A DNA stretch of 64,000 nt from Patescibacteria group bacterium (GTDB lineage Bacteria; Patescibacteriota; Minisyncoccia; Phycocordibacterales; Phycocordibacteraceae). The notes under the pieces are model-generated. The model saw only the letters and a list, made by a program, of their open reading frames with translations. It ran no database searches and was not told the origin of the DNA. The stretch covers positions 7,891-71,890 of the forward strand of contig JAGWWK010000002.1 of the NCBI GenBank assembly GCA_018970425.1. The letters are read 5' to 3'. Below, piece by piece: positions 3,455 through 53,677 of the stretch (position 1 is its first letter; each line of letters opens with the position of its first letter). A program made the translations under genes and the position numbers.

Positions 3455-3597
3455 CTCTCTCTATACTACCCCCTTGGATGCACAAAAAGGCGCCGGTGCG
3501 CCGCGCGATTTTCTCTCTATGCGGGTATACCCGCTCGCGTATCCTTTCGTACAGTCCCCAGGGTTATGAGGAAGTGCTTACTAATATTACACCACAT

Positions 3598-4146: not shown

Positions 4147-4149
4147 GAA

Positions 4150-4347
4150 CTATGCGTTCCAAGGCCACCACGAAGAGTGGAGGAACTTTCTTTGGCGACG
4201 CTTGTGCTTACCGCCCGAGCTACGCTCACTAGCAATACCTTGAGAAATTCCATATAGACCTGCAGCAGAGATAACAGCTGCAATCACCCATGCGACTGGG
4301 CTTGAAACTACATCTTCTAAAAGTTCTGTCGACGCACCTATAGTCAT
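4150..4347 (-). CDS. Hypothetical small membrane protein (65 aa, one TM)
   Basis: ATG-initiated ORF with a hydrophobic segment, ending 4 nt before the tsaC start; weak support. Confidence 0.3.
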   Translation of the reverse strand: MTIGASTELLEDVVSSPVAWVIAAVISAAGLYGISQGIASERSSGGKHKRRQRKFLHSSWWPWNA

Positions 4348-4530
4348 AGCATCTAAAAACTATCCCGAGAAAGTTCCCCTCAACGTAGGTGAGAGACTCT
4401 TTTTCAGGCCCAGCTTGCTTCTAATCAAGCCGTACTTTATACCTTACTCTTCATTACGCCACAGTGCAATAGTGGTGTGGTGTAATTGCTGTGGCTTAAA
4501 AACCCGATTTGGTGTATAGTTTTAGCCACG

Positions 4531-4603
4531 GGCGCTTAGCTCAGTTGGTAGAGCATTTCTTTGACGTAGAAAGGGTCAGAGGTTCGAGTCCTCTAGCGCC
4601 CAC
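4531..4603 (+). tRNA. tRNA-Val (anticodon GAC)
   Basis: gggcgcttagctcagttggtagagc...anticodon loop ttGACgt...ggttcgagtcctctagcgccca. Confidence 0.85.
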
Positions 4604-4608
4604 CCCGT

Positions 4609-4633
4609 AAAACCGGCACTGCCGGTTTTTTTA
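4609..4633. terminator. Bidirectional terminator (aaaaccggcactgccggttttttt) serving tRNA-Val and orn
   Basis: Hairpin with a flanking A-run and T-run; it overlaps the orn stop codon. Confidence 0.7.
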
Positions 4634-5185
4634 TTTCAACCAGTTCTCGCGGTAGTAGCGGAGCTCTTCGATAGACCCCTTGATGTCATCGAGCGCGCGG
4701 TGTGTCTTACCCTCCTTCATCTTTTGTGCGGCCTCAAAGTACTCCGGGCGCCAGCGTCGTGCGAGCTCTTTCACTGCGGTGACATCGATGTTGCGATAGT
4801 GGAGATAGAAGTAGAGGTCATGCATCTGAAGTCGCATAAATGTGCGGTCGAGCGTCATCGAGTTACCACACAGTGGCGCCGTCTGTGGTGCGCAGTAGGT
4901 CGAAATAAACGTGAGCGTCTCTGCCTCTGCTTCCTGAATAGTTGTAGTCGATGCACGGACACGGTCGATGATCCCCGACTTCTTGTGTATCTCTAGGACC
5001 TCGGGCGGGATGTGGTTAAACCGGTCCATGTCTGCCTGGATCGTAATTTGTGGCCCCTCGGCGATGATCTGTAGGTCTTTGTCTGTAATTATTGTTGCGA
5101 CTTCAGTAATAGTGTCCACCGTTGGATCGACAATAGACGTCATTTCAAAGTCCATCCACACTAAGAGGTCGTCTCGCTGTGCCAT
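4631..5185 (-). CDS. orn: Oligoribonuclease (DEDD 3-prime to 5-prime exonuclease)
   Basis: LVWMDFEMT DEDD motif and overall resemblance to Orn; ATG at 5185 chosen. Confidence 0.8.
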   Translation of the reverse strand: MAQRDDLLVWMDFEMTSIVDPTVDTITEVATIITDKDLQIIAEGPQITIQADMDRFNHIPPEVLEIHKKSGIIDRVRASTTTIQEAEAETLTFISTYCAPQTAPLCGNSMTLDRTFMRLQMHDLYFYLHYRNIDVTAVKELARRWRPEYFEAAQKMKEGKTHRALDDIKGSIEELRYYRENWLK

Positions 5186-5211: not shown

Positions 5212-6270
5212 ATGCGTGTCCTAGCAATAGAAACCTCGTGCGATGAAACCGCGGTCTCGATTCTTGAATGTTCAGGTAGCGTGAGTGGGGCGACCTTCCG
5301 CGTGCTCGGAAACGCGCTCTACTCGCAAGCTGATCTCCATGCTCAATACGGTGGCGTCTTCCCTACCCTCGCGAAGCGCGAACATATTAAGAACCTTCCC
5401 GTCATGTATGCGGAAGCGATGCGGCAAGCTGGAAACCCGACCGTCGACCTTATCGCAGTAACCCAAGGTCCTGGACTTGAGCCCGCGCTTTGGACGGGCA
5501 TTGAATACGCAAAGGAGCTTGGTGACACGCTTGGCGTACCCGTCTTTGGCACTGATCACATGGAAGGCCACATCGTCTCAGGACTCGTCTCGCAAAATGA
5601 CGCATCCTCGTACACCCTTTCTGCTCCAGCCTTCCCTATACTTGGATTACTTATTTCTGGCGGGCACACCGAGCTCGTCCTCATGCGTACGTGGCACCAG
5701 TACGAGCTCGTCGGTCGCACGCTCGACGACGCCGTGGGCGAAGCGTTCGACAAAGTTGCCCGCATGCTCGACCTCCCCTACCCCGGCGGACCGCGGATAG
5801 AGAAGCTAGCCGCTCAAGCAAGCGCACGCGGAGCGGTCCACGATATAGTATTTCCGCGACCAATGCTGCATGACAAGAGCTGCAACTTCTCATTCTCAGG
5901 ACTCAAGACTGCCGTTCTCTATCGCATACGCGAAATGAAAGATTTGTCAGACGATGATAAGGAGCATATCGCACAGGCCTTCCAAGATGCCGCACGGGAA
6001 GTGCTCGTGGCAAAAACCAAGAAAGCTTTGCTCGAAACTGGTGCACGCACGCTCGCGGTAGGCGGTGGTGTCTCCGCGAGCAAAAATATTCGCGCAGGAC
6101 TTGAAGATCTTGTCCGGACTGACTTTCCTGAAGTCCACCTCTCGTACCCTACTGGCGGTCTCCACCTCGACAACTCCATCATGATAGGTATGGCCGCATA
6201 CCTCCGCCACGCGGCCGGGTACCCTAGTGGCCCCCTTGAGGCCCGAGGGGCGCAAAAACTGGCTCCGTGA
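5212..6270 (+). CDS. tsaD: tRNA N6-adenosine threonylcarbamoyltransferase TsaD (Kae1/YgjD)
   Basis: MRVLAIETSCDETAVSIL N-terminus and GGVSASKN motif; ATG at 5212. Confidence 0.9.
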   Translation: MRVLAIETSCDETAVSILECSGSVSGATFRVLGNALYSQADLHAQYGGVFPTLAKREHIKNLPVMYAEAMRQAGNPTVDLIAVTQGPGLEPALWTGIEYAKELGDTLGVPVFGTDHMEGHIVSGLVSQNDASSYTLSAPAFPILGLLISGGHTELVLMRTWHQYELVGRTLDDAVGEAFDKVARMLDLPYPGGPRIEKLAAQASARGAVHDIVFPRPMLHDKSCNFSFSGLKTAVLYRIREMKDLSDDDKEHIAQAFQDAAREVLVAKTKKALLETGARTLAVGGGVSASKNIRAGLEDLVRTDFPEVHLSYPTGGLHLDNSIMIGMAAYLRHAAGYPSGPLEARGAQKLAP

Positions 6271-6282
6271 TACCATTTTTAA

Positions 6283-8442
6283 ATGCTCGACCCCAAGTTC
6301 CTTAAGCCCTACGATGCGCAGTCCTCTGAAGGCCGCATCTACAGTACGTGGGAGAATTCCGGCTATTGCAACCCTGACAACTTGCCTCACAACCGCACGG
6401 AGCCGTTTTCTATTGTTCTGCCGCCTCCTAACGTTACCGGTACCCTCCACATGGGCTCAGCGCTCATGCTCGCACTTGAAGATATGATTGTGCGCTACAA
6501 GCGTATGCAAGGATTCAAAACACTCTGGATCCCAGGCACTGACTCTGCTGCCATAGCAACGCAGGCACGCGTAGAAAAAAATATTCAAAATGCCGAGGGC
6601 AAGAGCAGGTATGACCTGGGGCGTGAAGAGCTCCTCAGACGGATTGATGTGTATGTAGAATCAACCAAAAATATAATTATTGGGCAGATGCGTGCCACGG
6701 GCGCTTCTCTCGACTGGTCGCGCTACGCCTACACAATGGATGCTGAGCGCTACAGCGCTGTGATGCACGCGTTTATCAAAATGTACGAAGCGGGTCTTAT
6801 CTACCGGGGGAACCGTATCGTCAACTGGGACCCGAAGGGACAAACAACCATCTCAGACGATGAAATTGTGTATGAGGAGCGAGACGCAATGCTTTACACG
6901 TTTACCTATGGAAAGGAGTTTCCTATCCCTATCGCAACGACCAGGCCTGAAACAAAAGTTGGCGATGTGGCGGTTGCAGTGCACCCGTCCGATGAGCGCT
7001 ACGCTGAATACGTCGGCAACGTATACGACGCTGTCTTTTGCGATGTACCCATTCGCATCACGGTCGTTGCCGACCACACAGTAGACAGGGAGTTTGGAAC
7101 TGGTGCCGTCGGAGTTACCCCGGCGCACTCACTCGCTGACTGGGATATTGCTGACCGGCACAACTTACAACGCCCGCAAGTCATAAATGAGTACGCAAAG
7201 ATGACGGTCGAGGGCCGCTTGCACGGAAAAAAGACAACTGTCGCGCGCGAAGAGGTGGTCGCCTGGCTCAGATCCGAAGGACTGCTCATTACGGAGGAAA
7301 AAATTAAGCACAATGTTGCAACTGCTGAGCGGACCGGCGGTATTATCGAGCCTTTGCCAAAGCTCCAGTGGTTTGTTGCGGTAAATAAAGAGTTTACCCG
7401 CCCTGATGGCACCGTCGATACGCTCAAGGAGGTCATGCGCCGCGCTGTAGACTCGGGCAAGACAACATTCCTCACTGAGCGCTTCGAAAAGCAGTATCGA
7501 CACTGGGTCGAGAATCTCCGCGACTGGTGTATCTCTCGTCAAATTTGGTTCGGGCACCGTATCCCCGTGTGGTACCAGGGCGATGCTAGTAAGGTCCAGG
7601 TGACGTCCCCCGGCGAAGGATGGTCGCAAGACGAAGACGTGCTCGATACCTGGTTTTCCTCCGGACTCTGGACCATGACCACGCTCGGCTGGCCCAATGA
7701 TACTGAAGACCTGCGAACGTATCACCCCACCGCACTTATTGAAACTGGGTACGATATTCTTTCCTTCTGGGTCGCGCGCATGATACTCATGAGCGGTTTT
7801 TTCCTCAACGATGTGCCGTTTAAAACAGTCTACTTTCACGGAATTGTCCGCGACGGCCAAGGGCGCAAGATATCAAAGTCGTTAGGCAACAACATTGATC
7901 CCGTCGACCTAGCGGCAAAGTATGGTATGGACGCGGTACGCATCGCGCTCATTATGGGTATGGCTCCCGGCACCGACTCAAAGGTAGATGAAAACAAAAT
8001 CCGTGGCTACAAAAATTTTGCAAATAAAATTTGGAATATTGCTCGCTTCGTCCTTGAGAACACTGAAGGTACTGACCTCACGGAAACTCATGTCTTTTCC
8101 GCTGAAGACCAAGAAGACCTTGCGGCACTCAGCCGTACCGTGCTCGATGTCACGAAGCATATGGACGAGTACCGCGTCGACCTCGCCGCAGATCGCGCGT
8201 ATCACTACGTATGGCACACGTTTGCAGATGAGGTCATTGAGCGGGCAAAACCAATTCTCAAAGGCACCGACGCGGTGGCACAGCGTGCAACTGCCGCGAA
8301 ACTGTATACCATCCTTACCACCTCACTCAAACTCCTCCACCCGTTTATGCCGTTTGTGACGGAGGAAATCTGGCTGGCGCTCCCGCAAAAAGACGCGGAG
8401 CTCTTACTCATCGCTCCCTGGCCAAAATCCGCGATACAATAA
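6283..8442 (+). CDS. valS: Valyl-tRNA synthetase, compact form (719 aa)
   Basis: HIGH region PPPNVTGTLHMGSAL, KMSKS-type KISKSLGN, CP1 editing region; no C-terminal coiled coil. Confidence 0.85.
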   Translation: MLDPKFLKPYDAQSSEGRIYSTWENSGYCNPDNLPHNRTEPFSIVLPPPNVTGTLHMGSALMLALEDMIVRYKRMQGFKTLWIPGTDSAAIATQARVEKNIQNAEGKSRYDLGREELLRRIDVYVESTKNIIIGQMRATGASLDWSRYAYTMDAERYSAVMHAFIKMYEAGLIYRGNRIVNWDPKGQTTISDDEIVYEERDAMLYTFTYGKEFPIPIATTRPETKVGDVAVAVHPSDERYAEYVGNVYDAVFCDVPIRITVVADHTVDREFGTGAVGVTPAHSLADWDIADRHNLQRPQVINEYAKMTVEGRLHGKKTTVAREEVVAWLRSEGLLITEEKIKHNVATAERTGGIIEPLPKLQWFVAVNKEFTRPDGTVDTLKEVMRRAVDSGKTTFLTERFEKQYRHWVENLRDWCISRQIWFGHRIPVWYQGDASKVQVTSPGEGWSQDEDVLDTWFSSGLWTMTTLGWPNDTEDLRTYHPTALIETGYDILSFWVARMILMSGFFLNDVPFKTVYFHGIVRDGQGRKISKSLGNNIDPVDLAAKYGMDAVRIALIMGMAPGTDSKVDENKIRGYKNFANKIWNIARFVLENTEGTDLTETHVFSAEDQEDLAALSRTVLDVTKHMDEYRVDLAADRAYHYVWHTFADEVIERAKPILKGTDAVAQRATAAKLYTILTTSLKLLHPFMPFVTEEIWLALPQKDAELLLIAPWPKSAIQ

Positions 8443-39296: not shown

Positions 39297-40526
39297 ATGA
39301 CCGAGGCGGCGCTCTACGTCACGTTGTTTCTTGCGCTGTATTTTCAGACCTTCGCGCTCCTGACGTTTTTATCGAAAGATGCTCGTCAGCGCCGTACAAA
39401 AGTACGCCTAGAGAGCGACTTTCCGCGTGTTGCAGTCATCGTTCCCTGCTGGAATGAAGAAACGACCATTCGCGGCACAGTCGAGTCACTCCTCGCGCTC
39501 GACTACCCGAGGGAGAAGCTCGAACTCATTTTGGTAAATGACGGATCGACCGACAACACTGCCCGCGTGCTCAATGAGTACCGCGCACACCCAATGATCA
39601 GCGTGATCCATAAACAAAACGGCGGTAAGCACTCCGCGGTGAACCTCGGCGCGGCCCGCACCAGAGCAGAGTTTATCGGCTGCCTTGATGCCGACTCGTT
39701 TGTGCACCCGGGAGCTCTGAAAGAGGTGCTGGCGCACTTTGATGACCCGCGAGTCGCATCAGTCACGGCGTCTATGACCGTGCATGAGCCACGTACTATT
39801 CTTGAGCGTATGCAGTACGCCGAGTACCTCGCGGGAGTTGCATTACGGCACATCCTCGCGACGGTAAACGGTCTGTACGTCACGCCTGGTCCATTCTCGT
39901 TTTACCGCGCATCCATCATTCGGAAACTTGGTGGGTTCCGTCACGGTCACCAAACCGAAGACATGGAAATGGCAATGCGTCTCCAGCGTCATGGCTATCG
40001 TATTGAAAACGCTCCGCGCGCGCAGGTATTCACCAAGGCACCAAAAACTGTGTGGAAGCTGGTCAAACAGCGTACGCGTTGGACCTCCGGCTTTATCAGA
40101 AACGCGTACGACTACCGCGACCTCATGTTCAATCATAACTATGGCGTCCTCGGACTCCTCGTACTGCCGCTCGGTGTTCTTGCGCTCATTTCAGCAATGG
40201 GACTCACTGTACTCGCAATCACTGATACCTCGCGCATGGTCGCGACAGCGCTCCGCACGCAGGGCGATGTCCCATGGTCATTCGCGTTTTCCGCGCCACG
40301 CATGGATTGGTTTTACGCCCCTATAACGGAAGCTCTTGTTCTTTCTATTGTCGGTATTGCGACAGTGACCGCAATTATGTACATTGGCAAAGCGATTTCG
40401 GGTGCCCAAAAGCCGATCGCGCAAGATATTCTCTGGTATTTGGCATGCTACTCGCTCGTCGCGCCGATCTGGGTCTTCAGGTCAGCTGCCTACGTTGCGC
40501 TCGGCGTCCGGAATGCCTGGCGCTAA
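39297..40526 (+). CDS. Family-2 glycosyltransferase, membrane-bound processive type (cellulose/chitin/PNAG-synthase-like)
   Basis: VAVIVPCWNEE, DGSTD, DADS, C-terminal QRTRWTSG (QxxRW) and TM helices. Confidence 0.85.
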   Translation: MTEAALYVTLFLALYFQTFALLTFLSKDARQRRTKVRLESDFPRVAVIVPCWNEETTIRGTVESLLALDYPREKLELILVNDGSTDNTARVLNEYRAHPMISVIHKQNGGKHSAVNLGAARTRAEFIGCLDADSFVHPGALKEVLAHFDDPRVASVTASMTVHEPRTILERMQYAEYLAGVALRHILATVNGLYVTPGPFSFYRASIIRKLGGFRHGHQTEDMEMAMRLQRHGYRIENAPRAQVFTKAPKTVWKLVKQRTRWTSGFIRNAYDYRDLMFNHNYGVLGLLVLPLGVLALISAMGLTVLAITDTSRMVATALRTQGDVPWSFAFSAPRMDWFYAPITEALVLSIVGIATVTAIMYIGKAISGAQKPIAQDILWYLACYSLVAPIWVFRSAAYVALGVRNAWR

Positions 40527-40527
40527 T

Positions 40528-41199
40528 ATGACACCATTTCAAAACGCTCTCGCTGCCCTCGGTATTACCGTAGCCCTGTTTGGTACGGTCGTCTTCGCCG
40601 TAGACTACCTGAATGAGCAGCGCATTGCTGAACTCAGCCGAATCGAGGACACTATCACCATCGACACACTCTCTCTTGAAACGCAGTTCGACCTCCTTGC
40701 AGAGGCGCCGTGCCGAGAGGTTTCCGAAGGTAGCGTGCTCTCTGGAGAGCTGAACGATCTCGCCGCCCGGCTATCCTATGCAGAGGAGCGACTAGGCGCA
40801 GACAACGAAGAAGTCACTAAACTAAAAGAGCGCTATACCCTTCTTGAAATAAAAGACTACCTCTTGATGAAGCGTCTTGCCAAGGAGTGTACAAACCTGA
40901 AGCCAGTCTTCGTGCTCTACTTTTACTCAAACAAGGGCGACTGCCCCGGTTGCGCCGAGGCGGGCTATGCACTCTCGTACCTGAGAGAAAAATATCCTGA
41001 ACTCCGCGTGTACGCCTTCGACTACAACCTCGACCTAGGAGCACTCAAAACGCTCCGCTCGGTGCTTCGCATCACGGAACCCCTTCCTGCCTTTGTGATC
41101 AATGGTAAGAACTACAGCGGTATCACCTCACTAGGAGATCTTGAACCGCTCTTGCCGACAGATCTCCTCGCTACCTCGACAGACGCACGACGTCGCTAG
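40528..41199 (+). CDS. Membrane-anchored thioredoxin-fold protein with a CPGC motif
   Basis: N-terminal TM helix, coiled region, CPGC redox motif (DsbA-like / thiol-disulfide oxidoreductase-like). Confidence 0.55.
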   Translation: MTPFQNALAALGITVALFGTVVFAVDYLNEQRIAELSRIEDTITIDTLSLETQFDLLAEAPCREVSEGSVLSGELNDLAARLSYAEERLGADNEEVTKLKERYTLLEIKDYLLMKRLAKECTNLKPVFVLYFYSNKGDCPGCAEAGYALSYLREKYPELRVYAFDYNLDLGALKTLRSVLRITEPLPAFVINGKNYSGITSLGDLEPLLPTDLLATSTDARRR

Positions 41200-41263: not shown

Positions 41264-41339
41264 GCCGCCTTAGCTCAGTTGGTAGAGCAACTCACTTGTA
41301 ATGAGTAGGTCCCCAGTTCGAATCTGGGAGGCGGCTCCA
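41264..41339 (+). tRNA. tRNA-Thr (anticodon TGT), CCA encoded
   Basis: gccgccttagctcagttggtagagcaactcac-ttTGTaa-tgagtaggtccccagttcgaatctgggaggcggctcca. Confidence 0.85.
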
Positions 41340-41359
41340 GACAAATAAAAATAAAAAAG

Positions 41360-41540
41360 ACCTGATCTACGATCGGCCTTCCCTCGCTCGCTCCGTGTAA
41401 GCAATGCTTGCTCCGTTCACTCTCTCGGAAGACCTGATCTACGATCGGCCTTCCCTCGCTCGCTCCGTGTAAGCAATGCTTGCTCCGTTCACTCTCTCGG
41501 AAGACCTGATCTACGATCGGCCTTCCCTCGCTCGCTCCGG
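41360..41540. repeat. 72-bp tandem repeat, 2.5 copies (unit gacctgatctacgatcggccttccctcgctcgctccgtgtaagcaatgcttgctccgttcactctctcggaa)
   Basis: Exact tandem copies read directly; each unit has an internal hairpin (agcaa tgc ttgct); the last partial unit overlaps the 3-prime end of the minus-strand ORF. Confidence 0.9.
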
Positions 41541-41891
41541 AGTTATCGTTTTGAGGAATTCTGACACTGGAGCGGCTCCCGTCCGCGGCGCTGAAATCCG
41601 GAGTTTGTACGAGAGCTTCGCAAGAGGGCGCTCAATAGCCCGAATCGCTTCTACCGCACCGTGAATAGAAAGATGTGTCACATCGTGCGCGATGGCGCCA
41701 AGGTACGCACGCCATGAGAGTGGAACACCGCCAAGCACAAGGCGTGGCACGAATGCCGTCACACGTGCGTCGAGTCGTGCGCGCTCAGATTCAAAAAAAC
41801 GGGCTCCGCGCGCTAGTTCCAAACGCCGCACGTACGCAAACGCGAGCATCAGTGATGCCGCGACAAGCATGACGCTGAGGGGCAAAAGCAT
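41511..41891 (-). CDS. Hypothetical membrane-anchored protein (126 aa)
   Basis: ORF downstream of tsf with an N-terminal TM helix; its C-terminus runs into the tandem repeat. Confidence 0.45.
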   Translation of the reverse strand: MLLPLSVMLVAASLMLAFAYVRRLELARGARFFESERARLDARVTAFVPRLVLGGVPLSWRAYLGAIAHDVTHLSIHGAVEAIRAIERPLAKLSYKLRISAPRTGAAPVSEFLKTITPERAREGRS

Positions 41892-44173: not shown

Positions 44174-44206
44174 AGAAAAAAGCGCTACCTCAAGTGTAGC
44201 GCACCG

Positions 44207-44470
44207 TTACTTAGCTGAGCCCGTCTTTTTAGACGCGCGAGTCTTGAACCGCTCAACCCGACCTGCGCGGTCTATGGTTACCTTCTTACCAGTATAAAAC
44301 GGGTGCGATGCGGATGAAATTTCAACAACCACGCGGTCGTACTCTTTCCCATCATCCCAGGTCGCCGTACCGGTCCCTTTAACCGTTGAGCCGATCAAAA
44401 ACCGGGTACCTGACTCAACATCATCAAAAATGACGGGGCGAAAGTTCTTCGGGTGAATATCTGCCTTCAT
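44207..44470 (-). CDS. rpmE: 50S ribosomal protein L31, type B (no Cys zinc site)
   Basis: MKADIHPKNF...HPFYTGK L31 signature without CxxC. Confidence 0.85.
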   Translation of the reverse strand: MKADIHPKNFRPVIFDDVESGTRFLIGSTVKGTGTATWDDGKEYDRVVVEISSASHPFYTGKKVTIDRAGRVERFKTRASKKTGSAK

Positions 44471-44509: not shown

Positions 44510-47500
44510 TTACCGCTCCTCGTACCGAGGTGCAAGCTTGACCGATGTAGAGACCGAAACAGTCTGACCACTCTGCATTGAGCGACACGAAAGTGTATAG
44601 GTAGTTTCCCCCGGTATCGCCCCCGTCTCTTGACTACCCGACTCGCCTGCTAGGGTCCATGACGCTCCGCGCGACGATGTTAAGCGGCACGAGTTTTTAA
44701 CAACATCTGCCGCACTCCAGGAGAGCGTTACACTACCCCCTAGGCGCACTGCCGAGCGGCTCGCTGAGAGTGAGAGTGCCGCGGGTACATTACTCTCCTC
44801 AGTTGTATCAGTGCCGGATGAGCACGCTGGGTCCTCAGTATCCACAAGACCATTTCCGTTATTATCTATGCCGTCTTGGCATTGAGTCGGTGTTGCGATA
44901 GTGACTGCGTACCACGCACCACAATTATTTGCCGTGTTTCCTTCCGGCGTGCCGAGTGGCGTGTTCGCGCAGATGCGGACGCGATGCGCGCCGGGTACGG
45001 CGGTCCACGCCTCTGATATGCTCTGCACCGAAGCTTGCGGCGCGAGACCCGTGAGCGTGGGCCCAGTGAGTGTTACGTCAGTTGAGCCGTTCGATCCAAT
45101 ATCAATCTGAAATGCGACAGGAGCAGAACCACTAAACGCGTAGCTTGAGAGGTTTTCCGTAAAGGTGCCCGTGTAGGTAGTGGTTTCCGTTGGCGATACA
45201 CTGCGGGTGCCCTGAGTCGCAGGCGTCACCGACCCAATGCCGCGATCAATCGTAAAGGTCGCGGCGCCCGGCGCAGACCATGCAAGTGATGCCGACTGGC
45301 CTGCGGTGATGATTGACGGAGAGGCAGTCAGGCTGCATTTTGCTCCCTGATTCGGGATAGTGATGGTCGCGCCGCACGTGTCACTGCACGCGGAACGATT
45401 AAAACCTGCGAAGAAATTGTAGTTTTTCTGATTCATTCCTCCATATCCGGTTGTGTAAGAGTCTCGCTGAACAAGTGTCGCTCCCGTAAATGCGCGGTAT
45501 GTGTAGTACGTATTGAAGGGCTGCCCGGTTGGTCCGACGTGTTCGCGCACCTCTACGGAACAGCACCCATTGAGTGGCGTTATTGCCTCGCACGCTGACT
45601 GAATTGACTCAGTACCGAACCCGAACCCGACGCCGTCTTGGATATCATTGTCCGAAGCCACTAAGGTTCCTCCGCTACATTGCATTCCACCTTGAAGTGC
45701 AACCGACGAGTTCACATCTGTTCCAATACAGCGATTTGAGGTCAGTGCATATGTGTGCACGCCCGCGGCGAGTCGTGTCGGGAATGTGTATGAGCCGCTG
45801 AGAGCATACGGCGTGCCCGCGTACCGGCATGAGAGCGTATCGGAAAGATACGGACCCGTGCATCCGGAGAGTGACCGCCAGATTGAGCCGTCATAGGATA
45901 GGTTTGAGGAACTTCCGCAGGTACTCCAGTTTCTTGCCCCCCACGTGTACGCTGTCGCATCGGCTCGTCCTGTAATAAGCGCACACACGCGATCAAGCGT
46001 TGTCTGTGTTGCCGATGCTGACCGCGTACCCTTCACTGTTTCAGGAAAACTAATGCCACCATTTGTTTGCATGTCCTGCTTCACCGCAGTAGATGAAAAG
46101 AACCCGCTTTCGCCCGGACTTACAATAACCTGATTACTACTTCCGGACGCGGGAATGGTCGGAGAACCGCTCGTGAGCGGTCGAACAGATGACACGACTG
46201 TTGCACCGGAGGTTGACCATCGCACCTCCTGTTCACTCAACGTGATTGAGCATCCGCCCTGTGCCGCTAACGCCACTGTCGCTTGGCACTGACCGCCTGC
46301 GGCGAACGCCGGTGGCTCATTGGTAATTGTTCCGAAAAAGCGCACCTGCTTACCGCCGACTAGCTCGCCGCTTTCTACACCCGTAGCGCCGCCCACCAGG
46401 TCAAAGCCAGTTACGGTAAACGAGTAGTCCGGTCCGCAGTTATTGTTTTCATTTATTTCCGAGAGCTGAGAAGTCGGACTATCAGCGCACATGCGCACGC
46501 GGTGCGAACCAAGCGGTACCGGCGACCACACGGGTGATGTCACTCCCGCGACTCCTCCGTATGGAACATCGTACTGCGTGCCCGTCACGGAACGCCACGT
46601 CCCCGCAAAGCATGTACTCCCACTCGGGCATGTGCTCGTTGTTGGATTACTGTAGACAGAAACACCTATTGTGTAAGAACCGAGTGACAATGCATCAGCA
46701 ATGCTAGCAACAAGGCGATTCGTGGCCACTAAGTTAGTACCTCCGCCGCCTCCGCCTCCTCCTCCGCCGCCTCCGCCTCCTCCGCCGCCTCCGCCGCTGG
46801 AGTCCGTACTATAGATAACCGATGCTCCACAACATTGCCCCGGGGAGGAGAGCTGGGTACACAGTGTCCGTACAGTTGAATCCAAGTCACCAGCTCCAAA
46901 GAGAGTGAATGACTCTGTACGCAAGAGCGAGCCGGTCGTACACGTTCTACCATACTCAAGCTGAAGCTCAGTGCCCGTCGAGCCTCCCGTATCGAGCAGA
47001 ACATCATAGCTACCATCCGCGCCTATGTCGACTTGAAAGCGATTACTAAATACTTTCGAAATAGAGTTGTTTCCTATATTTTGCACATTCGCGCTAAAGC
47101 GTATTTCACCAAGCGGAAGTAGAACACCGAGAATAGACGGGAGCGATGCGGTCACATCTGTACTCACGCCTTCTTGTACGATCACGCCACAACCGCTTCC
47201 CGAGCAGATACATGACGATTGCTGGCACGGATCCCCGGTACACGCCGCGGCAATACTCGCACTACCCGACTGCACCGTAAGCGTTGCTACCTTCTCACCA
47301 GTCGTTGTATAGGTTTTTGCCACTGTTGCCTGAGTCCCATACACATCGTCGGTCCCACTCCATGAGTATGTATATGAGCCCGATCCACCACTCACCGCAG
47401 ATGTCCACGACACTGACTGCCCAACCGTAACAGGATTTGGACTCGCACTGCAGGAGACGGTGAACACATTCACCGTAACAGTGCGTGACGCGGTGGCAGT

Positions 47501-48907
47501 ACCGCCCGCACCCGAGCATGAAATAGAGTAGGTCTTAGTAGCAGTCGGCGAAATAGTTACGGAACCTGTAGTTGCCCCACCAGTAGAAAAGTTGGTACCG
47601 GTGCAGCTTGTTGCGTTTGTCGAAGACCACGTAAGAATTGTGTTTTGACCCGATGACACACTGGTCGGATTCGCTGCAAGCGATGCCGTGACCGCTGGTC
47701 CGTATGAGATGAGTGTTGCGTCAAACGATGTTGTGGAGCAACGCGGCTCGGCTCCTCCAGTGCAACTTTGTCCGCCAGCATTTGGCGCAGTGGTCTGTGT
47801 ACCGGTAAACGCGGAGCAGGTAAACGATGTGCTGAAGTCATCGGTATATGTTCGCGTTGTGCAGCAGCTTGCATTCTGCGATGTGCAGTACGAAACACAT
47901 GAGTTCGTCGTATACGCTGCACTACCCACAAGCGTGCCGCCCGTACACATGCTATCGCTTACTTCTTGTGTGCTGTATGCCGCCGATACCGTCACGGTCA
48001 CACTTGCAGTTTGGGTTCCACCAGGACCCGTACAGCTTACGGTATATGTTGTTGTCGAACTCGGTGACACACTTTGAGTACCCGAGACCTGGTTGCCAGT
48101 AGAGAAGCCAGTTCCAGTGCAGCTCGTTGCGTTAGCAGAACCCCACGTGAGCGTCACAGACTGTCCTCCAGTGATCGAGGTTGCCGATGCGGTCAACGAG
48201 GCGGTCGGTTGCGCCGGAGCACTTGCGGTAATTGCGCTCCAAGCGCCGCAATTGTTGTTTTCATTTGATTCAACTACGGATCCTGCGGAGCTTGCGGAAC
48301 TTTTATCCGCGCACGCGCGAACGTACCAAACCTGCGCGGACGGAAATGTGTACGAGAATGATGCCGTCGCCGATCCATTTGCGGCGAGTGCCGCAATCGT
48401 CATGGTGCCAATATCAGTCGCGCTCGCGCCCGCGGCAGAGGTGCCGCGCTGAAAAAGTACTGTTGCGCTTGGGCTTGCCGCAGTCCCAATGTTGGAAATC
48501 GTGGCCGACAGCGCTACGGGTGATCCTACTGTTGCAGCGCTCGGAGAGACGCCCCCCGCGGTAAGGTCAGGTTGAGGCGATGCGTATGTTAATAGATAGG
48601 CGGTGTAGTTTAAGCGCGCTGTATTAGAAACTGCGGTTGTCTGGGTTGTAGTACGTGCGGTGCAGGTCGATGAAACATACGATCCTTCAATATCATATGA
48701 GCTGAGCACACCACAGCACGTGGCAGAGAGCGCACCGCAGTACGGTACACACTCGGATGGGTCGTATACAGTAGTCTGACCGACAAGCGGAGCTGTCGAG
48801 AGACACCGAGCCCCGTCTTGAACTGACGCAATCGTATACGCGCTCGCAGAGCTAGCGATGAGGAATGTGGCTACAGCGACAGCAACTATTCCTAATACTT
48901 TACTCAT
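44510..48907 (-). CDS. Giant secreted/cell-surface protein (about 1465 aa), Cys/Ser/Thr/Gly-rich
   Basis: Signal-peptide-like N-terminus (MSKVLGIVAVAVATFLIASSASA). Repeated Ig-like modules (...SCTGTGFSTG...TTTYTVSCTGPGGTQTASVTVTV). Three CARDB-like modules with an ENNNCG motif. A poly-Gly stretch of about 21 residues. A TSP3-like CQDGIDNNGNGLVDTEDPAC motif. Start chosen at MSKV. Confidence 0.75.
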   Translation of the reverse strand: MSKVLGIVAVAVATFLIASSASAYTIASVQDGARCLSTAPLVGQTTVYDPSECVPYCGALSATCCGVLSSYDIEGSYVSSTCTARTTTQTTAVSNTARLNYTAYLLTYASPQPDLTAGGVSPSAATVGSPVALSATISNIGTAASPSATVLFQRGTSAAGASATDIGTMTIAALAANGSATASFSYTFPSAQVWYVRACADKSSASSAGSVVESNENNNCGAWSAITASAPAQPTASLTASATSITGGQSVTLTWGSANATSCTGTGFSTGNQVSGTQSVSPSSTTTYTVSCTGPGGTQTASVTVTVSAAYSTQEVSDSMCTGGTLVGSAAYTTNSCVSYCTSQNASCCTTRTYTDDFSTSFTCSAFTGTQTTAPNAGGQSCTGGAEPRCSTTSFDATLISYGPAVTASLAANPTSVSSGQNTILTWSSTNATSCTGTNFSTGGATTGSVTISPTATKTYSISCSGAGGTATASRTVTVNVFTVSCSASPNPVTVGQSVSWTSAVSGGSGSYTYSWSGTDDVYGTQATVAKTYTTTGEKVATLTVQSGSASIAAACTGDPCQQSSCICSGSGCGVIVQEGVSTDVTASLPSILGVLLPLGEIRFSANVQNIGNNSISKVFSNRFQVDIGADGSYDVLLDTGGSTGTELQLEYGRTCTTGSLLRTESFTLFGAGDLDSTVRTLCTQLSSPGQCCGASVIYSTDSSGGGGGGGGGGGGGGGGGGGTNLVATNRLVASIADALSLGSYTIGVSVYSNPTTSTCPSGSTCFAGTWRSVTGTQYDVPYGGVAGVTSPVWSPVPLGSHRVRMCADSPTSQLSEINENNNCGPDYSFTVTGFDLVGGATGVESGELVGGKQVRFFGTITNEPPAFAAGGQCQATVALAAQGGCSITLSEQEVRWSTSGATVVSSVRPLTSGSPTIPASGSSNQVIVSPGESGFFSSTAVKQDMQTNGGISFPETVKGTRSASATQTTLDRVCALITGRADATAYTWGARNWSTCGSSSNLSYDGSIWRSLSGCTGPYLSDTLSCRYAGTPYALSGSYTFPTRLAAGVHTYALTSNRCIGTDVNSSVALQGGMQCSGGTLVASDNDIQDGVGFGFGTESIQSACEAITPLNGCCSVEVREHVGPTGQPFNTYYTYRAFTGATLVQRDSYTTGYGGMNQKNYNFFAGFNRSACSDTCGATITIPNQGAKCSLTASPSIITAGQSASLAWSAPGAATFTIDRGIGSVTPATQGTRSVSPTETTTYTGTFTENLSSYAFSGSAPVAFQIDIGSNGSTDVTLTGPTLTGLAPQASVQSISEAWTAVPGAHRVRICANTPLGTPEGNTANNCGAWYAVTIATPTQCQDGIDNNGNGLVDTEDPACSSGTDTTEESNVPAALSLSASRSAVRLGGSVTLSWSAADVVKNSCRLTSSRGASWTLAGESGSQETGAIPGETTYTLSCRSMQSGQTVSVSTSVKLAPRYEER
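46738..46797 (-). repeat. Triplet-type simple repeat (CCG/CCT-CCG-CC on the plus strand) encoding the poly-Gly tract of the giant protein
   Basis: Low-complexity run read directly. Confidence 0.85.
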
Positions 48908-49757
48908 ATCGCCACGCATGAAGTTCAATAAATCCAGGGGCTTCGCCGACAACTCGCTCTGCCCCGCTCACGAGGTCGACTAGGGTGAGGGTCGTGGTCT
49001 CAAGATCGCCGTACGCGCTCAGAAGGTACCTCCCGTCAGGAGAAAAGACAAGACTGTGAGACGCAAATGACGGCGTCAGAAGTATAGGGACAAAAAAACC
49101 ATTTTCATTTCTGAATACCTGCAGTGAACGGTCTGCGGAGGCAACCCAGGCGACTCGTTGCCCGTCTTGCGAGACAGTGAAGGGTGTTGTTTCGGTAACA
49201 GGTACCGGACTTTCAACAAGGACGACAGGCGGCGTATCCGCGTATGAGAGCAGAAGAATACCTTTTTCTGTAAGCGCAATCGTGCGCTGCGTACCGGTTG
49301 GGAATGCGTTAAATCCCGTACCCACATCAAGTCGATCGCCGTGCGTAACGGCGCGCGAGACAACCCACGTCCCAGATGCTGACTGCGTTGCAAATGCGAT
49401 ACTGCGCCCATCTTTTGACCACTGCGGCGCTTTCACAACCCCATCGGAGAGCAGCACCTCCGTTCTTCTTCCACGCTGAAGCACCGCAAGCGCTACTCCC
49501 CCCGGCATGCGCTCGACCTGTGCTAATGTATCGGGCTCCGTAGAGGGTACCGCCGCGAGCACACGCGGCTCGGGGCGCAGCAAAAGCTCAGCGCCAAGTG
49601 GTGAAAGTGTTAGTTCTCCAGCTCTAACCGCCCCATCTGTGGCGATCTGCGAAATCGCAACCGCTCCGCGCAGAGGGCCAATGAAAAAAATAATGATGCT
49701 CGCGAGCGAAGCAAATCCTAAAACAATAGCGCCGCCCAAGACTACGCTGCGGTCCAT
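48900..49757 (-). CDS. Membrane-anchored PD40/TolB-like beta-propeller repeat protein (copy A)
   Basis: N-terminal TM helix, PD40-like repeats (SKDGRSIAFAT, SQDGQRVAWVAS, SPDGRYLLSAYGD); paralog of 51641-52267. Confidence 0.5.
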   Translation of the reverse strand: MDRSVVLGGAIVLGFASLASIIIFFIGPLRGAVAISQIATDGAVRAGELTLSPLGAELLLRPEPRVLAAVPSTEPDTLAQVERMPGGVALAVLQRGRRTEVLLSDGVVKAPQWSKDGRSIAFATQSASGTWVVSRAVTHGDRLDVGTGFNAFPTGTQRTIALTEKGILLLSYADTPPVVLVESPVPVTETTPFTVSQDGQRVAWVASADRSLQVFRNENGFFVPILLTPSFASHSLVFSPDGRYLLSAYGDLETTTLTLVDLVSGAERVVGEAPGFIELHAWRYE

Positions 49758-49790
49758 GCGCGTATTGTAACACTTGCACTACTCTCGTTT

Positions 49791-51638
49791 TTAGATTTCC
49801 TCAAATGATGGTGCGATCCTGCAGTCGACTGCTTTAGACACCACGCGTCCATCAAGCGCGGTGCACGAGAGCGTATAGCGAGCAGTTTGTGCAAGTCCTG
49901 GTGTAACAACTACAGACGTTGCGATATTTCCATTAACGGCGGGGATAGTACGGGTGAGGCCGGTTCCTTGTAGAGAGCATGAGCGCACCGCACGCGCCGC
50001 AAATGTAATAGAGCATTGCTCATTCTTTTTAATCAGTGGTGGGTTGATAGTGAGGACGAGCTCTGCAGGTGGCGCCGCCTCAAGTGTATCAGCAAGCGAC
50101 TCGCAGAACGGGTCATCCGGCCAATCGGCAAGTCCGTCACCATTGTTATCGACGCCATCTGCGCACTGCGCGAGAGCGGTCGCTGCGCTTCCCTCAGACA
50201 TGTCAGTTTCTGACGTACACCCTGGGTCTAACCTGTCGACGAGTCCGTCGCTGTCATTGTCTACGCCATCCGCGCACTGCGCTGGCGCAATACGTACCTG
50301 GGTATCGCACGAAACCGTACGAGAAAGCCCGGTAGTCACCCCTCCGCCGATGCACTGCGTACCTACAATTCCCGCCACTGAGCTACATGAGTACTCTCTC
50401 AAACATTTTCTACCGACAGAGTACTTGGGCTCTGTCGGTGAGGGTGAACCTCCACGAAAGACTGTAATAGACCAGAATGAATTGGGCGGATATCCAGCAC
50501 CCAGCGGATTACCGGACTCCTGTACCCACTGGCAGCAGTCTCCGTTTCGTGCCCCCGCCTCAATACATTTATCCACAAAGTAATTTGGCGGCTGGAGGCC
50601 GAGCTGCACAGCATCTTCCATTTCGGCAATTCTTCCGACTTGCGTTCCGCCTGAACAGCTCTGTCCCCCAACATCTATTTTAGGCACTGCCGTTTGTCCT
50701 GCCGGACATTGCCCGGGCTCGACTGCGCTTGCGTACCGTGCACCACCAATCATCGCCGCAACCTGTAGCACTCGGTCAAGCAACGACACCTGTGCAGAGG
50801 GTACAACACTTACAGTAAGTGATGCGCTTTTAAGACCCTCAGTACGGTACTGGGTGAGCGTTTGACGGTCCGTACCTGAAAGGCCGTCAGTGCCCGTCCA
50901 CTGATATGAGTAGGTGCCCTGCGGGCCAGACACTGCTGCCACCCACAGCACACTTTCACCTATCGATGCTCTTGATGGGTACGCACTGCACGAGACCGAC
51001 AAGCTCGGACTTGGAACAATCACGACCACTGTGGTTTTCGAGGACGCAACACCTCCTGGACTCGTACACGTGACTGAATACGTTGTATCAACTTGCGGAG
51101 CTACAAGTGCAGATCCCCGTGGCGCATTGCCAGTAGAAAAATTAGTGCCCGTGCAATTCGTCGCATTTGAATTCCACGTAAGTAGCGTTGAACTCCCAAC
51201 AAGAACCTGCTGCGGATTTGCAACAATCGACGCAGTGATTGCCGAGCTTGAAAGTCCCGCAAGGTATTTCCCCTGCTCTCCCGGAAGAGTACCTGATGGT
51301 CGATCTGTTGCCGAGTAAGGCGGAAAGCCGCTTGCAAGCGTTCCGCCAGCATAGATAGTGTAGTCAAAAATGGTGTAGCTCTGCGATGGTGTAACTGAAG
51401 CCGCATTTGTTCGCACATGCACAGAGCAACAGCCGCCCGGCGGTGTTTGAGCTCCGCATTCTGCTTGTGCTACTGCCTGCGCTCCATTGAAGATAGCAAA
51501 TCCACCTCCGTCTTGGAGATCGGAAAAAGCCGCGACAAGAGTACCTCCGGTGCACTGGGATGCATCAGTAAGAGTCATCGCAAAAGCGGGCGCCGCGAAC
51601 GTGAACATCATGAGCGAGAGCGCAAGTGAGTACCTCAT
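49791..51638 (-). CDS. Secreted Cys-rich surface protein (615 aa), paralogous to the giant protein
   Basis: Signal peptide MRYSLALSLMMFTFAAPAFA. Shared QCTGGTLVA...DLQDGGGF...GGCCSVHVR domain. Ig-like modules. Two TSP3-like Ca-binding motifs (QCADGVDNDSDGLVDRLDPGC and QCADGVDNNGDGLADWPDDPFC). Confidence 0.75.
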   Translation of the reverse strand: MRYSLALSLMMFTFAAPAFAMTLTDASQCTGGTLVAAFSDLQDGGGFAIFNGAQAVAQAECGAQTPPGGCCSVHVRTNAASVTPSQSYTIFDYTIYAGGTLASGFPPYSATDRPSGTLPGEQGKYLAGLSSSAITASIVANPQQVLVGSSTLLTWNSNATNCTGTNFSTGNAPRGSALVAPQVDTTYSVTCTSPGGVASSKTTVVVIVPSPSLSVSCSAYPSRASIGESVLWVAAVSGPQGTYSYQWTGTDGLSGTDRQTLTQYRTEGLKSASLTVSVVPSAQVSLLDRVLQVAAMIGGARYASAVEPGQCPAGQTAVPKIDVGGQSCSGGTQVGRIAEMEDAVQLGLQPPNYFVDKCIEAGARNGDCCQWVQESGNPLGAGYPPNSFWSITVFRGGSPSPTEPKYSVGRKCLREYSCSSVAGIVGTQCIGGGVTTGLSRTVSCDTQVRIAPAQCADGVDNDSDGLVDRLDPGCTSETDMSEGSAATALAQCADGVDNNGDGLADWPDDPFCESLADTLEAAPPAELVLTINPPLIKKNEQCSITFAARAVRSCSLQGTGLTRTIPAVNGNIATSVVVTPGLAQTARYTLSCTALDGRVVSKAVDCRIAPSFEEI

Positions 51639-51640
51639 AG

Positions 51641-52267
51641 CTACGGAAGTAAAGTTACTAATCCAGTAAATGTCGCAATCGTCGTTGGCTCTCGGCCTAC
51701 GTCGATCCGATACACGGTAGTCGCATTTGCGTCTATAACGGCGGCAAGCAACGTACCAGTCTGTTCAGTAAATGCGAGTGAACTTGGCCGAATTTCAGGA
51801 ATGACGGCAACCGGCTGGTAGGCACCGTTCTGATCTGCAAAGATCTGGAGCGAACCGTCGGCCGGATTCCTCCAGGCGATGCGGGCACCCTCTTGCCAAA
51901 CTGCAAACGGCGTCCGAGGATTGGCGGGGACGGCAGATGCAAGGAGGAGTGTAAGCGGTCCTGTACTCGATCCGACACGCTTCACAAGCCCCATCGGAGC
52001 AATGCTAACGACTGAACCGTCGCTCAGACGGACAAACGTCAACAGCTCATCTTGCGCCGCGGTGGTATCAGGCGTAATGGCACCCGATTGCGTATCAATC
52101 GTGAAAACTGCTGCACCAGCTTCCGTTCGCTGTATGAGACGTGCGCTTTCGCTGCTTGGTCGAACTGAGGAGAGTGTTACCGCCGCAGTCACCACCGCAA
52201 GTGTAATAAGATAAAACAGAGCGTTTCCCCACATGCGCGCACGAGGAGAATGAGAAAGAATAGTCAT
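51641..52267 (-). CDS. Membrane-anchored PD40/TolB-like beta-propeller repeat protein (copy B)
   Basis: N-terminal TM helix; homologous to copy A (QEGARIAWRNPADGSLQIFADQNGAYQPVAVIP matches SQDGQRVAWVASADRSLQVFRNENGFFVPILLTP). Confidence 0.5.
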   Translation of the reverse strand: MTILSHSPRARMWGNALFYLITLAVVTAAVTLSSVRPSSESARLIQRTEAGAAVFTIDTQSGAITPDTTAAQDELLTFVRLSDGSVVSIAPMGLVKRVGSSTGPLTLLLASAVPANPRTPFAVWQEGARIAWRNPADGSLQIFADQNGAYQPVAVIPEIRPSSLAFTEQTGTLLAAVIDANATTVYRIDVGREPTTIATFTGLVTLLP

Positions 52268-52318: not shown

Positions 52319-53677
52319 TTAGTTGTCTCGCAAGAACTCTATATTATTTTGAAACGCTTCGCGCTTTTTTATAACCGAATCGCCGTAGGTATAGTTGATG
52401 GGGCGTCGTGAATCGCACGCTCGCCCTGAGTAGTACCTACATGCGGCATTGCGTTCAGCAGTGTACGTCCCTCCGGCGGCACCCACATCCGCCAAGTACA
52501 GTGCGGTAGCCATGATTGCCTGTTCCGCGTCCCAGGGATTGGCCGCGCTGAGCCCAAGGGCAACTTTAATACGTTCTTCATAAAGGACCCATGTAGACGG
52601 AATGAATTGTGACGGCCCCATCGCTCCACCAAATCCACGGCTCGCGGTATACCGCGCGCCAAGCGGGCACGAGACTGGCGTTGTTGCCCAGGCCATGCCA
52701 AGCGCGGCAGTTATTCGCTCAAACGGTTGTGTGTCGCGTGGAGACTTCATCACTTGTTCGAATCGTCGCCCTGTATTTTTCCCAACCCCATCACCGCTCG
52801 CGAGATCCGTGACGAGGCACGAACCTACGTTCTTGCCTAGATCTGACTCTTGGGAAAGGATGGCGAGAACGAGCGCTGCGCGTACGCCTGTTTTTTGCTC
52901 AGCGGTCACAGCGTGCCTCAGTGCTGTGCCGAATGAAATACCTTCCGCGTCACGGAGCGGGAACAATGCACTTCGTATCTCTTCTGCCTTGCGCTGGCGC
53001 TCTGCAAGCACTGACGCGTATGCTCGCTCTTGGTTTTGCGTAATAGATAAAAGCTTCTTCTTCTCTTCCTGATTTGTTGCGATCTGGGAACGCGTCTGCT
53101 CGACATCGTATCGAGCGTCGATTTCAAGATTTCTTTTTTCAGCGAGCGCGGCTTTCTCACTCTCAGTAAGCTCTTTAACCGTGCGTACCTCTACAAATTT
53201 CTTTTCAAGATCGCGCCTTACTACAGCGATTCGCTCAATGTCGCCATACAGATCCGTGAACGAGTCCGAGCCAAGCAAGAACTCCGCAAAGGTGCGATCA
53301 TCGATTTCTCGTTGAAGCCTCAGCAGTTCCGCTAGTGACACTCGCCCGCGCGCTAATGTATCTTCATACTCAGAAATCTTTTCAGTTTTCTCTGCAATCT
53401 CATCAGACAGACGGGTTATCGTTACCGATCGCTGGCGCAACTCCGCTTCGGCTTTCTTGATAAGCGCATTGAGCCCCGTAACATCGCCCTGCAGGGTGCG
53501 TTTTTTCTCCCGAGTTTCATCAAGAACTTTTTGCCACTCTACTATCTCAGCCTGAATTTTTTCATACTCTGCTTGAAGGCGTACTTTATCAGCCTCGCTC
53601 AACATGGCGTGCGCTGGTGGCACCGCGAGAAAAAAAACTAAACATCCGAAAAAAAGACACACAAAAAAGGCCCGCAT
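52319..53677 (-). CDS. Secreted lytic murein transglycosylase (MltB/SLT family 2) with a coiled-coil N-terminal region of about 250 aa
   Basis: Signal peptide, long coiled-coil region, catalytic ESDLG and GPSQFIPSTW motifs; TATACT box 8 nt upstream of the ATG. Confidence 0.75.
   Translation of the reverse strand: MRAFFVCLFFGCLVFFLAVPPAHAMLSEADKVRLQAEYEKIQAEIVEWQKVLDETREKKRTLQGDVTGLNALIKKAEAELRQRSVTITRLSDEIAEKTEKISEYEDTLARGRVSLAELLRLQREIDDRTFAEFLLGSDSFTDLYGDIERIAVVRRDLEKKFVEVRTVKELTESEKAALAEKRNLEIDARYDVEQTRSQIATNQEEKKKLLSITQNQERAYASVLAERQRKAEEIRSALFPLRDAEGISFGTALRHAVTAEQKTGVRAALVLAILSQESDLGKNVGSCLVTDLASGDGVGKNTGRRFEQVMKSPRDTQPFERITAALGMAWATTPVSCPLGARYTASRGFGGAMGPSQFIPSTWVLYEERIKVALGLSAANPWDAEQAIMATALYLADVGAAGGTYTAERNAACRYYSGRACDSRRPINYTYGDSVIKKREAFQNNIEFLRDN

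Follow-up and report, generated by a model that had tools for sequence, protein, structure and literature searches.

How might a large secreted protein that carries no anchor of its own be held at the surface of a cell? The question is raised by a two-gene cassette, present twice in tandem, in a stretch of 64,000 nucleotides (nt) from contig JAGWWK010000002.1 of assembly GCA_018970425.1 (positions 7,891 to 71,890 of the forward strand; hereafter the window), which comes from the metagenome-assembled genome of a small-genome, groundwater-type member of the Patescibacteria. These bacteria are ultra-small and mostly uncultivated, and attachment to other cells is believed to be their way of life; their genomes often encode large hypothetical repeat proteins. 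To our knowledge, almost nothing is known of surface display or partner recognition in the group apart from type IV pili.

Both gene pairs of the window have the same signature: a gene for a transmembrane (TM) propeller protein (anchors B and A) lies directly upstream of a gene for a secreted mosaic protein (G1 and G2) that ends in a constant domain and tail. The pairing of these two kinds of gene matches no curated family, solved structure or paper. We put at roughly 0.4 the probability that the constant end docks on the cognate propeller, which in this way tethers a fibre with variable modules for an external ligand.

The gene pairs and the constant end of the large proteins

The features on which the argument turns are as follows, the four genes being taken from the list of open reading frames (ORFs).

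51641..52267, minus strand: anchor B, 208 aa
49791..51638, minus strand: G1, 615 aa
48900..49757, minus strand: anchor A, 285 aa
44510..48907, minus strand: G2, 1465 aa
49794..50282, minus strand: constant C-terminal end of G1, with two acidic double-disulfide repeats (nt 50085-50282) and the C-terminal domain (nt 49794-50078)
49794..49814, minus strand: tail of G1, APSFEEI-COOH, which fits the family motif
44513..44887, minus strand: constant C-terminal end of G2, with one acidic double-disulfide repeat (nt 44804-44887) and the C-terminal domain (nt 44513-44797)
44513..44533, minus strand: tail of G2, APRYEER-COOH, a deviant form with Y for F and R for I/F

The initial annotation had proposed four minus-strand genes forming a tandemly duplicated cassette of paralogous pairs, and this is borne out. 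All four ORFs are present at these positions. Anchors A and B are 39% identical over 87 aa (E 3e-17), and profile-profile comparison aligns B 76-206 to A 149-279 with a probability of 99.9%; between G1 and G2 there are several collinear stretches of similarity, the best of which has E 2e-34 and 50% identity over 145 aa, and their C-terminal ends are related. The genes had also been said to abut or overlap by 2-8 nt, which holds for two of the three junctions, a gap of 2 nt between B and G1 and an overlap of 8 nt between A and G2 (ATGAGTAA), but not for G1 and A, which are 33 nt apart. It is with the ATG at 48907 that G2 overlaps the stop codon of A by these 8 nt; an alternative G2 start is the ATG at 48919.

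G1 and G2 are acidic (isoelectric point about 4.6), rich in Ser, Thr, Gly and Ala, and contain 24 and 54 cysteines, respectively. Each has an N-terminal signal-peptide-like segment only; a regular-expression and hydropathy scan found no second TM helix, LPXTG motif, basic tail or lipobox in either. Only the two ends of the second gene product are constant, namely the signal peptide and the C-terminal end. In every large protein the latter consists of one to four acidic double-disulfide repeats (ADR), an Ig-like C-terminal domain (CTD), which is a variant of a module that we call IgS, and a tail of the form [ILV][AT]P-x-F-x-E-[IFL]-COOH, for example ...VDCRIAPSFEEI-COOH. The last seven residues of G1 are coil in its structure model. 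Two types of CTD ending can be told apart: ...DC[KR][IV]AP[TS]F[EQ]E[IF], the G1 type, is found behind B-type anchors, and ...[RK][LV][AT]P.[FY]E[EN][IR], the G2 type, behind A-type anchors. In locus L015, a relative described below, both large proteins (3320-5011 and 6001-8355) run 16-18 residues beyond the usual FEEV end (FRSLPTSIAHIFQVRHYE, FRTLPSNLAGVFRSLF), which could be an added amphipathic segment.

Since the tail codons all vary synonymously between loci, and the motif is kept whether an anchor gene, L31, Ddl or GAPDH lies downstream, the constraint on the tail acts on the protein and not on an embedded ribosome-binding site. The same two observations dispose, for G1 and G2, of the idea that the conserved tail is a by-product of an overlapping start codon or Shine-Dalgarno sequence. 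The curated sorting models of Pfam and NCBIfam (Por_Secre_tail, PEP-CTERM, GlyGly-CTERM and others) gave no match to G1, G2 or seven tail-bearing relatives. A profile search with the CTD recovered mainly the general IgS repeat (8429 clusters), with the tail motif at the end in 6 of the top 150, and is for that reason no measure of family size.

A conserved C-terminal element on a variable, repeat-rich secreted protein is also known from sortase LPXTG substrates, the CTDs of the type IX secretion system, PEP-CTERM and GlyGly-CTERM proteins and the retention modules of giant RTX adhesins, and type IX cargo resembles the present proteins further in that its last domain is an Ig-like beta-sandwich. 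In those systems, however, the arrangement differs: here the motif ends the protein as a free carboxylate, with no TM helix, basic tail, LPXTG or lipobox, and the candidate receptor is a dedicated neighbouring propeller rather than a shared sortase or secretion system.

The membrane-anchored propellers

By a hydropathy scan, anchors A and B each have one N-terminal hydrophobic helix; neither contains a cysteine, and a sequence scan found no lipobox in them. Anchor A is a type-II membrane protein with a TM helix at residues 2-26 (nt 49680-49754) and a PD40/TolB-like propeller (nt 48903-49667), and it terminates in HAWRYE. In its AlphaFold2 model, made from a 17-sequence alignment (predicted local distance difference test, pLDDT, 93; predicted TM-score 0.86), no more than four residues separate helix 2-26 from the 24 beta-strands, which form six four-stranded blades. 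The propeller is identified by this model, the sequence call of Pfam PD40 (PF07676) being a single repeat (31.8 bits against a gathering score of 20.9). The description of the small proteins as membrane-anchored and PD40/TolB-like is thus upheld by the repeat and model of A and by the N-terminal helix of both. NCBI names anchor A 'PD40 domain-containing protein [Patescibacteria group bacterium]'; its close homologues number only 17 among 5.8 billion proteins and four among GTDB species representatives.

Anchor B has its TM helix at about residues 14-36 (nt 52160-52228) and terminates in ...LLP. Its ectodomain is a shortened paralogue of that of A, with about four blades by size. When all anchors are aligned, B is seen to retain the strands that come first behind the TM helix. 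Two parts of A have no equivalent in it: roughly residues 60-135, which make up some two blades, and the final strand, HAWRYE. Pfam PD40 does not match B, which is tied to PD40 proteins through its homology to A only. A-type anchors all terminate in HAW.YE-COOH (nt 48903-48920 in the window), an ending with a loose likeness to the large-protein tails ([AW].[FY]E); the TATGAG overlap with the G2 start may contribute to the ...YE ending of anchor A.

The likeness of anchor A to TolB of the Tol-Pal system lies in the six-bladed PD40 beta-propeller. A is nevertheless not TolB, because the N-terminal TolA-binding alpha/beta domain is missing, with the TM helix fused straight to the propeller, because A scores 22.8 bits on TIGR02800 against a cutoff of 343.15, and because no tolQ, tolR, tolA or pal gene lies beside the cassette in the window or the related loci. 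Patescibacteria are not expected to have an outer membrane, and A and B, unlike TolB, are paired with secreted modular proteins. The propeller receptors of the YWTD class (LDLR, LRP4, LRP6, nidogen) offer an analogy only, at 7-14% identity; they join propeller and cysteine-rich repeats in one polypeptide, whereas here these are two gene products.

If the propeller is not the anchor of its partner, it could be a membrane-proximal assembly factor (a holdase, a scaffold for folding and disulfide formation, or a factor for passage through the wall), with the large protein released or attached elsewhere. The evidence fits this explanation as well as it fits docking. The genes are tightly coupled one to one, the propeller sits flush with the membrane where Sec substrates emerge, and 24-54 cysteines need extracytoplasmic oxidation, a membrane protein with a CPGC motif being encoded 3 kb away. 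A general chaperone, however, needs no dedicated, co-diverging paralogue for each large protein, as seen in the matching of A with G2-type and B with G1-type ends; the propeller contains no cysteine, and no catalytic or redox motif was found in it; and a strictly conserved free C-terminal tail is more like a docking or sorting signal. We consider an assembly factor unlikely.

Conservation and divergence of the pair

Synteny profiling across related genomes, proposed as a check in the initial annotation, shows that the pairs recur both in the close lineage and in distant Patescibacteria. An anchor gene lies directly upstream of 20 of the 21 large proteins for which both the 5' end and the upstream gene are readable. 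The close lineage, three distant ones and a stand-alone B-G1 pair all contribute to this count, and the genes of a pair are separated by small gaps or overlap. In every close relative examined B-G1-A-G2 sits between the SLT_2 gene and rpmE (L31); the order SLT_2-B-G1-A-G2-L31-RF-S2-Tsf is seen in loci L005, L006, L007, L008 and L010 and is partly visible in L003/L009, L018 and L019. Locus L016 has a lone B-G1 pair in a different context, and L017 an additional B-G1 copy.

In distant Patescibacteria the gene for a tail-bearing mosaic protein is immediately preceded by one for a TM protein of 304-322 aa. There is one such pair in L012 and in L013 and a tandem of two in L015, between uvrC and ddl. 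These anchors are beyond BLAST detection, yet they match the A profile (hhalign probability 95.6%, E 1e-8). On the contig of homologue P0047 the order is 318 aa - 802 aa - L31 - RF, with the 318-aa gene as a candidate anchor. A metagenome scan with the G1-type alignment yielded five loci only. Because the four-gene order is common to the close relatives and pairs occur in distant Patescibacteria, the duplication is, as judged from these comparisons, ancient and neither recent nor strain-specific; a recent tandem duplication is ruled out by the order common to all close relatives.

The two genes might also encode independently acting surface proteins, with no physical partnership, that are kept in one operon. 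Surface proteins with Ig-like, PKD and CARDB modules are common, IgS alone accounting for 8429 clusters of which most lack the tail, and one locus, L020, has a large protein without an anchor. Against this stands the persistence of adjacency, order and coupling even where BLAST no longer detects the anchors and the pairs sit in another context (UvrC...Ddl against SLT...L31), and we regard it as improbable that the two proteins have nothing to do with each other.

Compared with the proteins of six related loci, the anchors of the window are 32-46% identical and the best segments of G1 and G2 38-65% identical, against 60-89% for the products of the flanking genes (SLT_2, L25, FAD oxidase, L31, RF, S2, Tsf); the overall figure for cassette genes between relatives is 32-55%. 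Orthologues of the large proteins range from 469 to 1503 aa, with whole modules gained or lost. On these comparisons the whole module diverges fast, with shuffling of modules between species, and in this sense the earlier term 'diversifying' is apt. It does not extend to variation within a population: two independent Logan assemblies agree with the region at 99.98-100% identity, and the window contains no template/variable repeat pair like that of a diversity-generating retroelement. A hypervariable locus of that kind is ruled out on both grounds.

Such variation could come from drift, or from phage or predator pressure, in a structural component of the envelope (an S-layer-like or wall-spanning scaffold) that binds no ligand. 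A scaffold would suit the fixed chromosomal position among housekeeping genes, the probable co-transcription with rpmE and a lytic transglycosylase, the acidic, Ser/Thr/Gly/Ala-rich composition of the large proteins and the presence of an archaeal S-layer protein with propeller plus PKD domains (1l0q) among the fold matches of the anchor A model. It sits badly with the loss of the cassette in L021 and the single pair in L012, L013 and L016; the high cysteine content and the extreme variability in length and modules are atypical of lattice-forming S-layer proteins, and the Pfam and NCBIfam searches gave neither an SLH domain nor any other S-layer family. We hold this explanation to be quite unlikely.

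Proposed mechanism

The docking mechanism would run as follows. The first gene encodes a cysteine-free membrane protein with a TolB-like propeller directly on the outer face of the cytoplasmic membrane. The second, immediately downstream and usually translationally coupled, encodes a Sec-exported, acidic, disulfide-rich protein of shuffled beta-sandwich modules and small cysteine-rich domains, which most likely forms a fibre at the surface. The constant ADR-CTD-tail end of this fibre would dock non-covalently on the cognate propeller, in a manner resembling the docking of peptides and partner proteins on TolB and YWTD propellers. With its C-terminus held at the membrane by the propeller, the large protein would reach through the wall with its variable N-terminal modules and act as a binding fibre; its ligand may be the surface of a partner or host cell, or a polymer.

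This reading is suggested by the combination of large proteins that lack an anchor of their own with a C-terminal end that stays constant while the rest is shuffled. It is further suggested by a tail that is constrained at the level of the protein and is coil in the G1 model, by the conserved adjacency of anchors that are homologous even in distant lineages, and by the fast evolution of the module.

Several points weigh against it. The docking step is one that we infer outright, and nothing ties either protein of a pair to life with a host. Anchor B does not have the length for six blades, and the G2 tail of the window, APRYEER, departs from the motif. The G1 model is weak overall (pLDDT 61), with its acidic repeats below 50, and the 21 pairs are phylogenetically related and not independent. 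In L020 (337-5629) a G2-type protein of 1343 aa follows G1 directly, without an upstream anchor. L021 has lost the cassette except for a 72-aa CTD relic between SLT_2 and L31, and the module is for this reason regarded as dispensable.

Both exceptional loci have further features. The G2-type protein of L020 terminates in RLTPRFQEL, and downstream lies a gene for an unrelated 419-aa protein with a signal peptide, a C-terminal TM helix, an RRR tail and no family match, which could be a replacement partner. In L021 the place of the deleted cassette is 6803-8357 of a 278-kb contig; the relic (7034-7252) is of the G1 type and ends in CKIAPTFEEF, and a 194-aa minus-strand ORF is also present.

Modules of the large proteins

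Module architectures were obtained with hidden Markov models (HMMs) built from the window proteins and their relatives; SP stands for signal peptide, and CRDa and CRDc are two of three unclassified cysteine-rich domain types (CRDa, CRDc, CRDw).

G1, module order: SP(1-20)-CRDa(27-133)-IgS(136-207)-PKD-like(213-276)-CRDa(327-430)-ADRx2(453-518)-CTD(521-615)
G2, module order: SP-CRDc-CARDB-IgS-CRDc-IgS-PKD-like-CARDB[nested CRDa + 19 Gly]-CARDB-like-unassigned(913-1074)-CRDa-IgS-CARDB-ADR-CTD
48245..48574, minus strand: first CARDB domain of G2, residues 112-221 (PF07705 at residues 112-220, E 2.2e-18, 66.7 bits against a gathering score of 22.7)
46433..47158, minus strand: interrupted CARDB-like domain of G2, residues 584-641 and 729-825 (family HMM)

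The initial annotation's picture of secreted, cysteine-rich, modular proteins with CARDB and Ig-like domains agrees with the signal peptides, the cysteine counts and the modules found, although at 1465 aa the larger protein is large rather than 'giant'. The first CARDB domain of G2 is the only module of either protein above a Pfam gathering threshold; the family HMM finds four more CARDB-like segments, and Pfam CARDB finds none in G1. Pfam PKD (PF18911/PF00801) reaches 18.2 bits in G2 and 13.2 bits in G1 against a gathering score of 27, which homologue P0047 passes.

The shared domain QC.GGT...CCS that had been noted is our CRDa, with two copies in G1 (27-133, 327-430) and, in G2, one full copy (1075-1175) and one short copy (655-705). 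The ENNNCG modules correspond to three ...NNCG motifs in G2, at residues 217, 821 and 1327, and the poly-Gly linker is a run of 19 glycines (residues 704-722, nt 46742-46798) that, together with the short CRDa, interrupts the CARDB-like domain. This run is written in mixed GGC/GGA codons, and the nesting of CRDa in a CARDB-like domain is conserved among G2 orthologues, as in those of L007, L008, L009 and L010. The label 'TSP3-like' for the repeats C.DG.DN, two in G1 and one in G2, has to be replaced: Pfam TSP_3 gave no match to G1 or G2 at E<=1, and the repeat matches NF033662, the acidic double-disulfide repeat of NCBIfam, with 43.3 bits over two repeats in G1 (cutoff 41) and a score below that cutoff, 28.2 bits over one repeat, in G2.

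The repeat has the form C.DG.DN..DG..D...C, and the sources searched give NF033662 no function. The teneurin C-rich region is a looser comparison: a PDB sequence search with G1 gave only a weak match, to teneurin-2 and teneurin-4 (E 0.015-0.09). The PDB sequence matches of G2 are artefacts in which poly-Gly pairs with the linkers of single-chain variable fragments. In the G1 model the IgS, PKD-like and CTD modules are beta-sandwiches (pLDDT about 80) and CRDa is a strand-helix-strand unit (pLDDT about 70). A fold search with this model returned generic multi-Ig proteins only (TM-score about 0.12), the model being too flexible and low in confidence to classify CRDa in this way. A search for CRDa in the set of 5.8 billion proteins gave nothing at E<=1e-3 and is uninformative, since a domain of 100 aa cannot reach significance in a database of that size.

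IgS is a two-cysteine Ig-like module of about 70 aa, as at G1 136-207 (nt 51018-51233), and has no Pfam model. In a set of 1.84 billion representatives its profile finds the 8429 clusters mentioned above, 2591 of them at E<=1e-10, and a single protein can contain as many as 22 copies. Many IgS proteins terminate in a hydrophobic helix and an Arg-rich tail, and others have short aromatic-x-E-hydrophobic endings (e.g. ...RWEEVAP, ...DYKEF).

Fast-evolving, modular genes are also what one would expect of a conflict system, either a polymorphic toxin with its immunity protein or an anti-phage defence module. We judge this highly improbable. Searches of Pfam and NCBIfam found no enzymatic domain, be it of a toxin, a nuclease, a peptidase or another enzyme. 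The small gene comes before the large one, and its product is a membrane-anchored extracellular propeller rather than a cytoplasmic immunity protein. Polymorphic toxins, moreover, vary at the C-terminus, which in the large proteins is the constant end.

Among the closest known proteins are the adhesin-like ones with CARDB, PKD or Ig repeats from bacteria and archaea, with which G1 and G2 share tandem PKD-like and Ig-like modules, a signal peptide, an acidic composition and, in G2, CARDB above the Pfam threshold. They differ from them in their three cysteine-rich domain types, with CRDa nested in CARDB, in the constant ADR-CTD-tail end and in the obligate partner gene. The PD40 propeller, CARDB, the PKD and Ig repeats and the NF033662 repeat are known components. 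No counterpart of the pairing, the terminal motif, CRDa, CRDc, CRDw, IgS or the CTD turned up in Pfam, NCBIfam, PDB sequences or the literature that could be searched, in line with the earlier statement that the cassette matches no well-described system.

Neighbouring genes

52319..53677, minus strand: SLT_2 lytic-transglycosylase gene (signal peptide and coiled coil), directly upstream of anchor B
44207-44470, minus strand: rpmE (L31), 39 nt downstream of G2
44182-44202, minus strand: terminator-like hairpin after L31
53669-53683: terminator-like hairpin after L25

In the window and in all related loci the neighbours of the cassette are SLT_2, L25, PK, L31, RF, S2 and Tsf. Because terminator-like hairpins follow L25 and L31, the transcription unit, bounded here by consensus scans only, is likely to be SLT_2-B-G1-A-G2-rpmE, ending at L31. 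The SLT_2 gene, which may thus share a unit with anchor B, lies directly upstream of B in every close relative (69-74% identical) and is absent from the distant pair-bearing lineages; its enzyme may open the wall for the large proteins or may be unrelated to the pair.

About 3.3 kb from the genes for the cysteine-rich proteins, an ORF at 40384-41199 on the plus strand encodes an N-terminal TM helix and a thioredoxin-like CPGC motif (...SNKGDCPGCAEAGY...). It has no Pfam match and is a candidate extracytoplasmic thiol-disulfide oxidoreductase; in L003 a similar unannotated 232-aa gene adjoins a GT2 gene. Directly downstream of tRNA-Thr (41264-41339) lies a perfect 72-bp tandem repeat (41357-41539; 2.5 copies, 100% identical) that overlaps the 3' end of a 126-aa ORF (41511-41891, minus strand). 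It may have arisen in the assembly, be what is left of an attachment site, or have a regulatory role.

Conclusions

Should the docking idea prove wrong, the finding would come down to two hypothetical surface proteins of an ordinary kind. A wider proposal, that Patescibacteria possess a hitherto unrecognised, sortase-independent display system in which the free tail on the Ig-like end domain is captured by a dedicated propeller, each propeller tethering its own rapidly re-shuffled fibre for contact with a partner or host, is offered tentatively, and we think it clearly less probable than not. Under this proposal the tail might, where the anchor is of the truncated B type, go so far as to complete the propeller. 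The analysis also flags widespread domains that have no family model, namely IgS, the three cysteine-rich domain types and the CTD. Such loci could be annotated in metagenomes by their signature, a TM-propeller gene with a gene for a fixed-tail secreted protein behind it, and a conserved, fast-evolving module that is recognized so simply is a testable candidate for a lineage-specific tethering mechanism.

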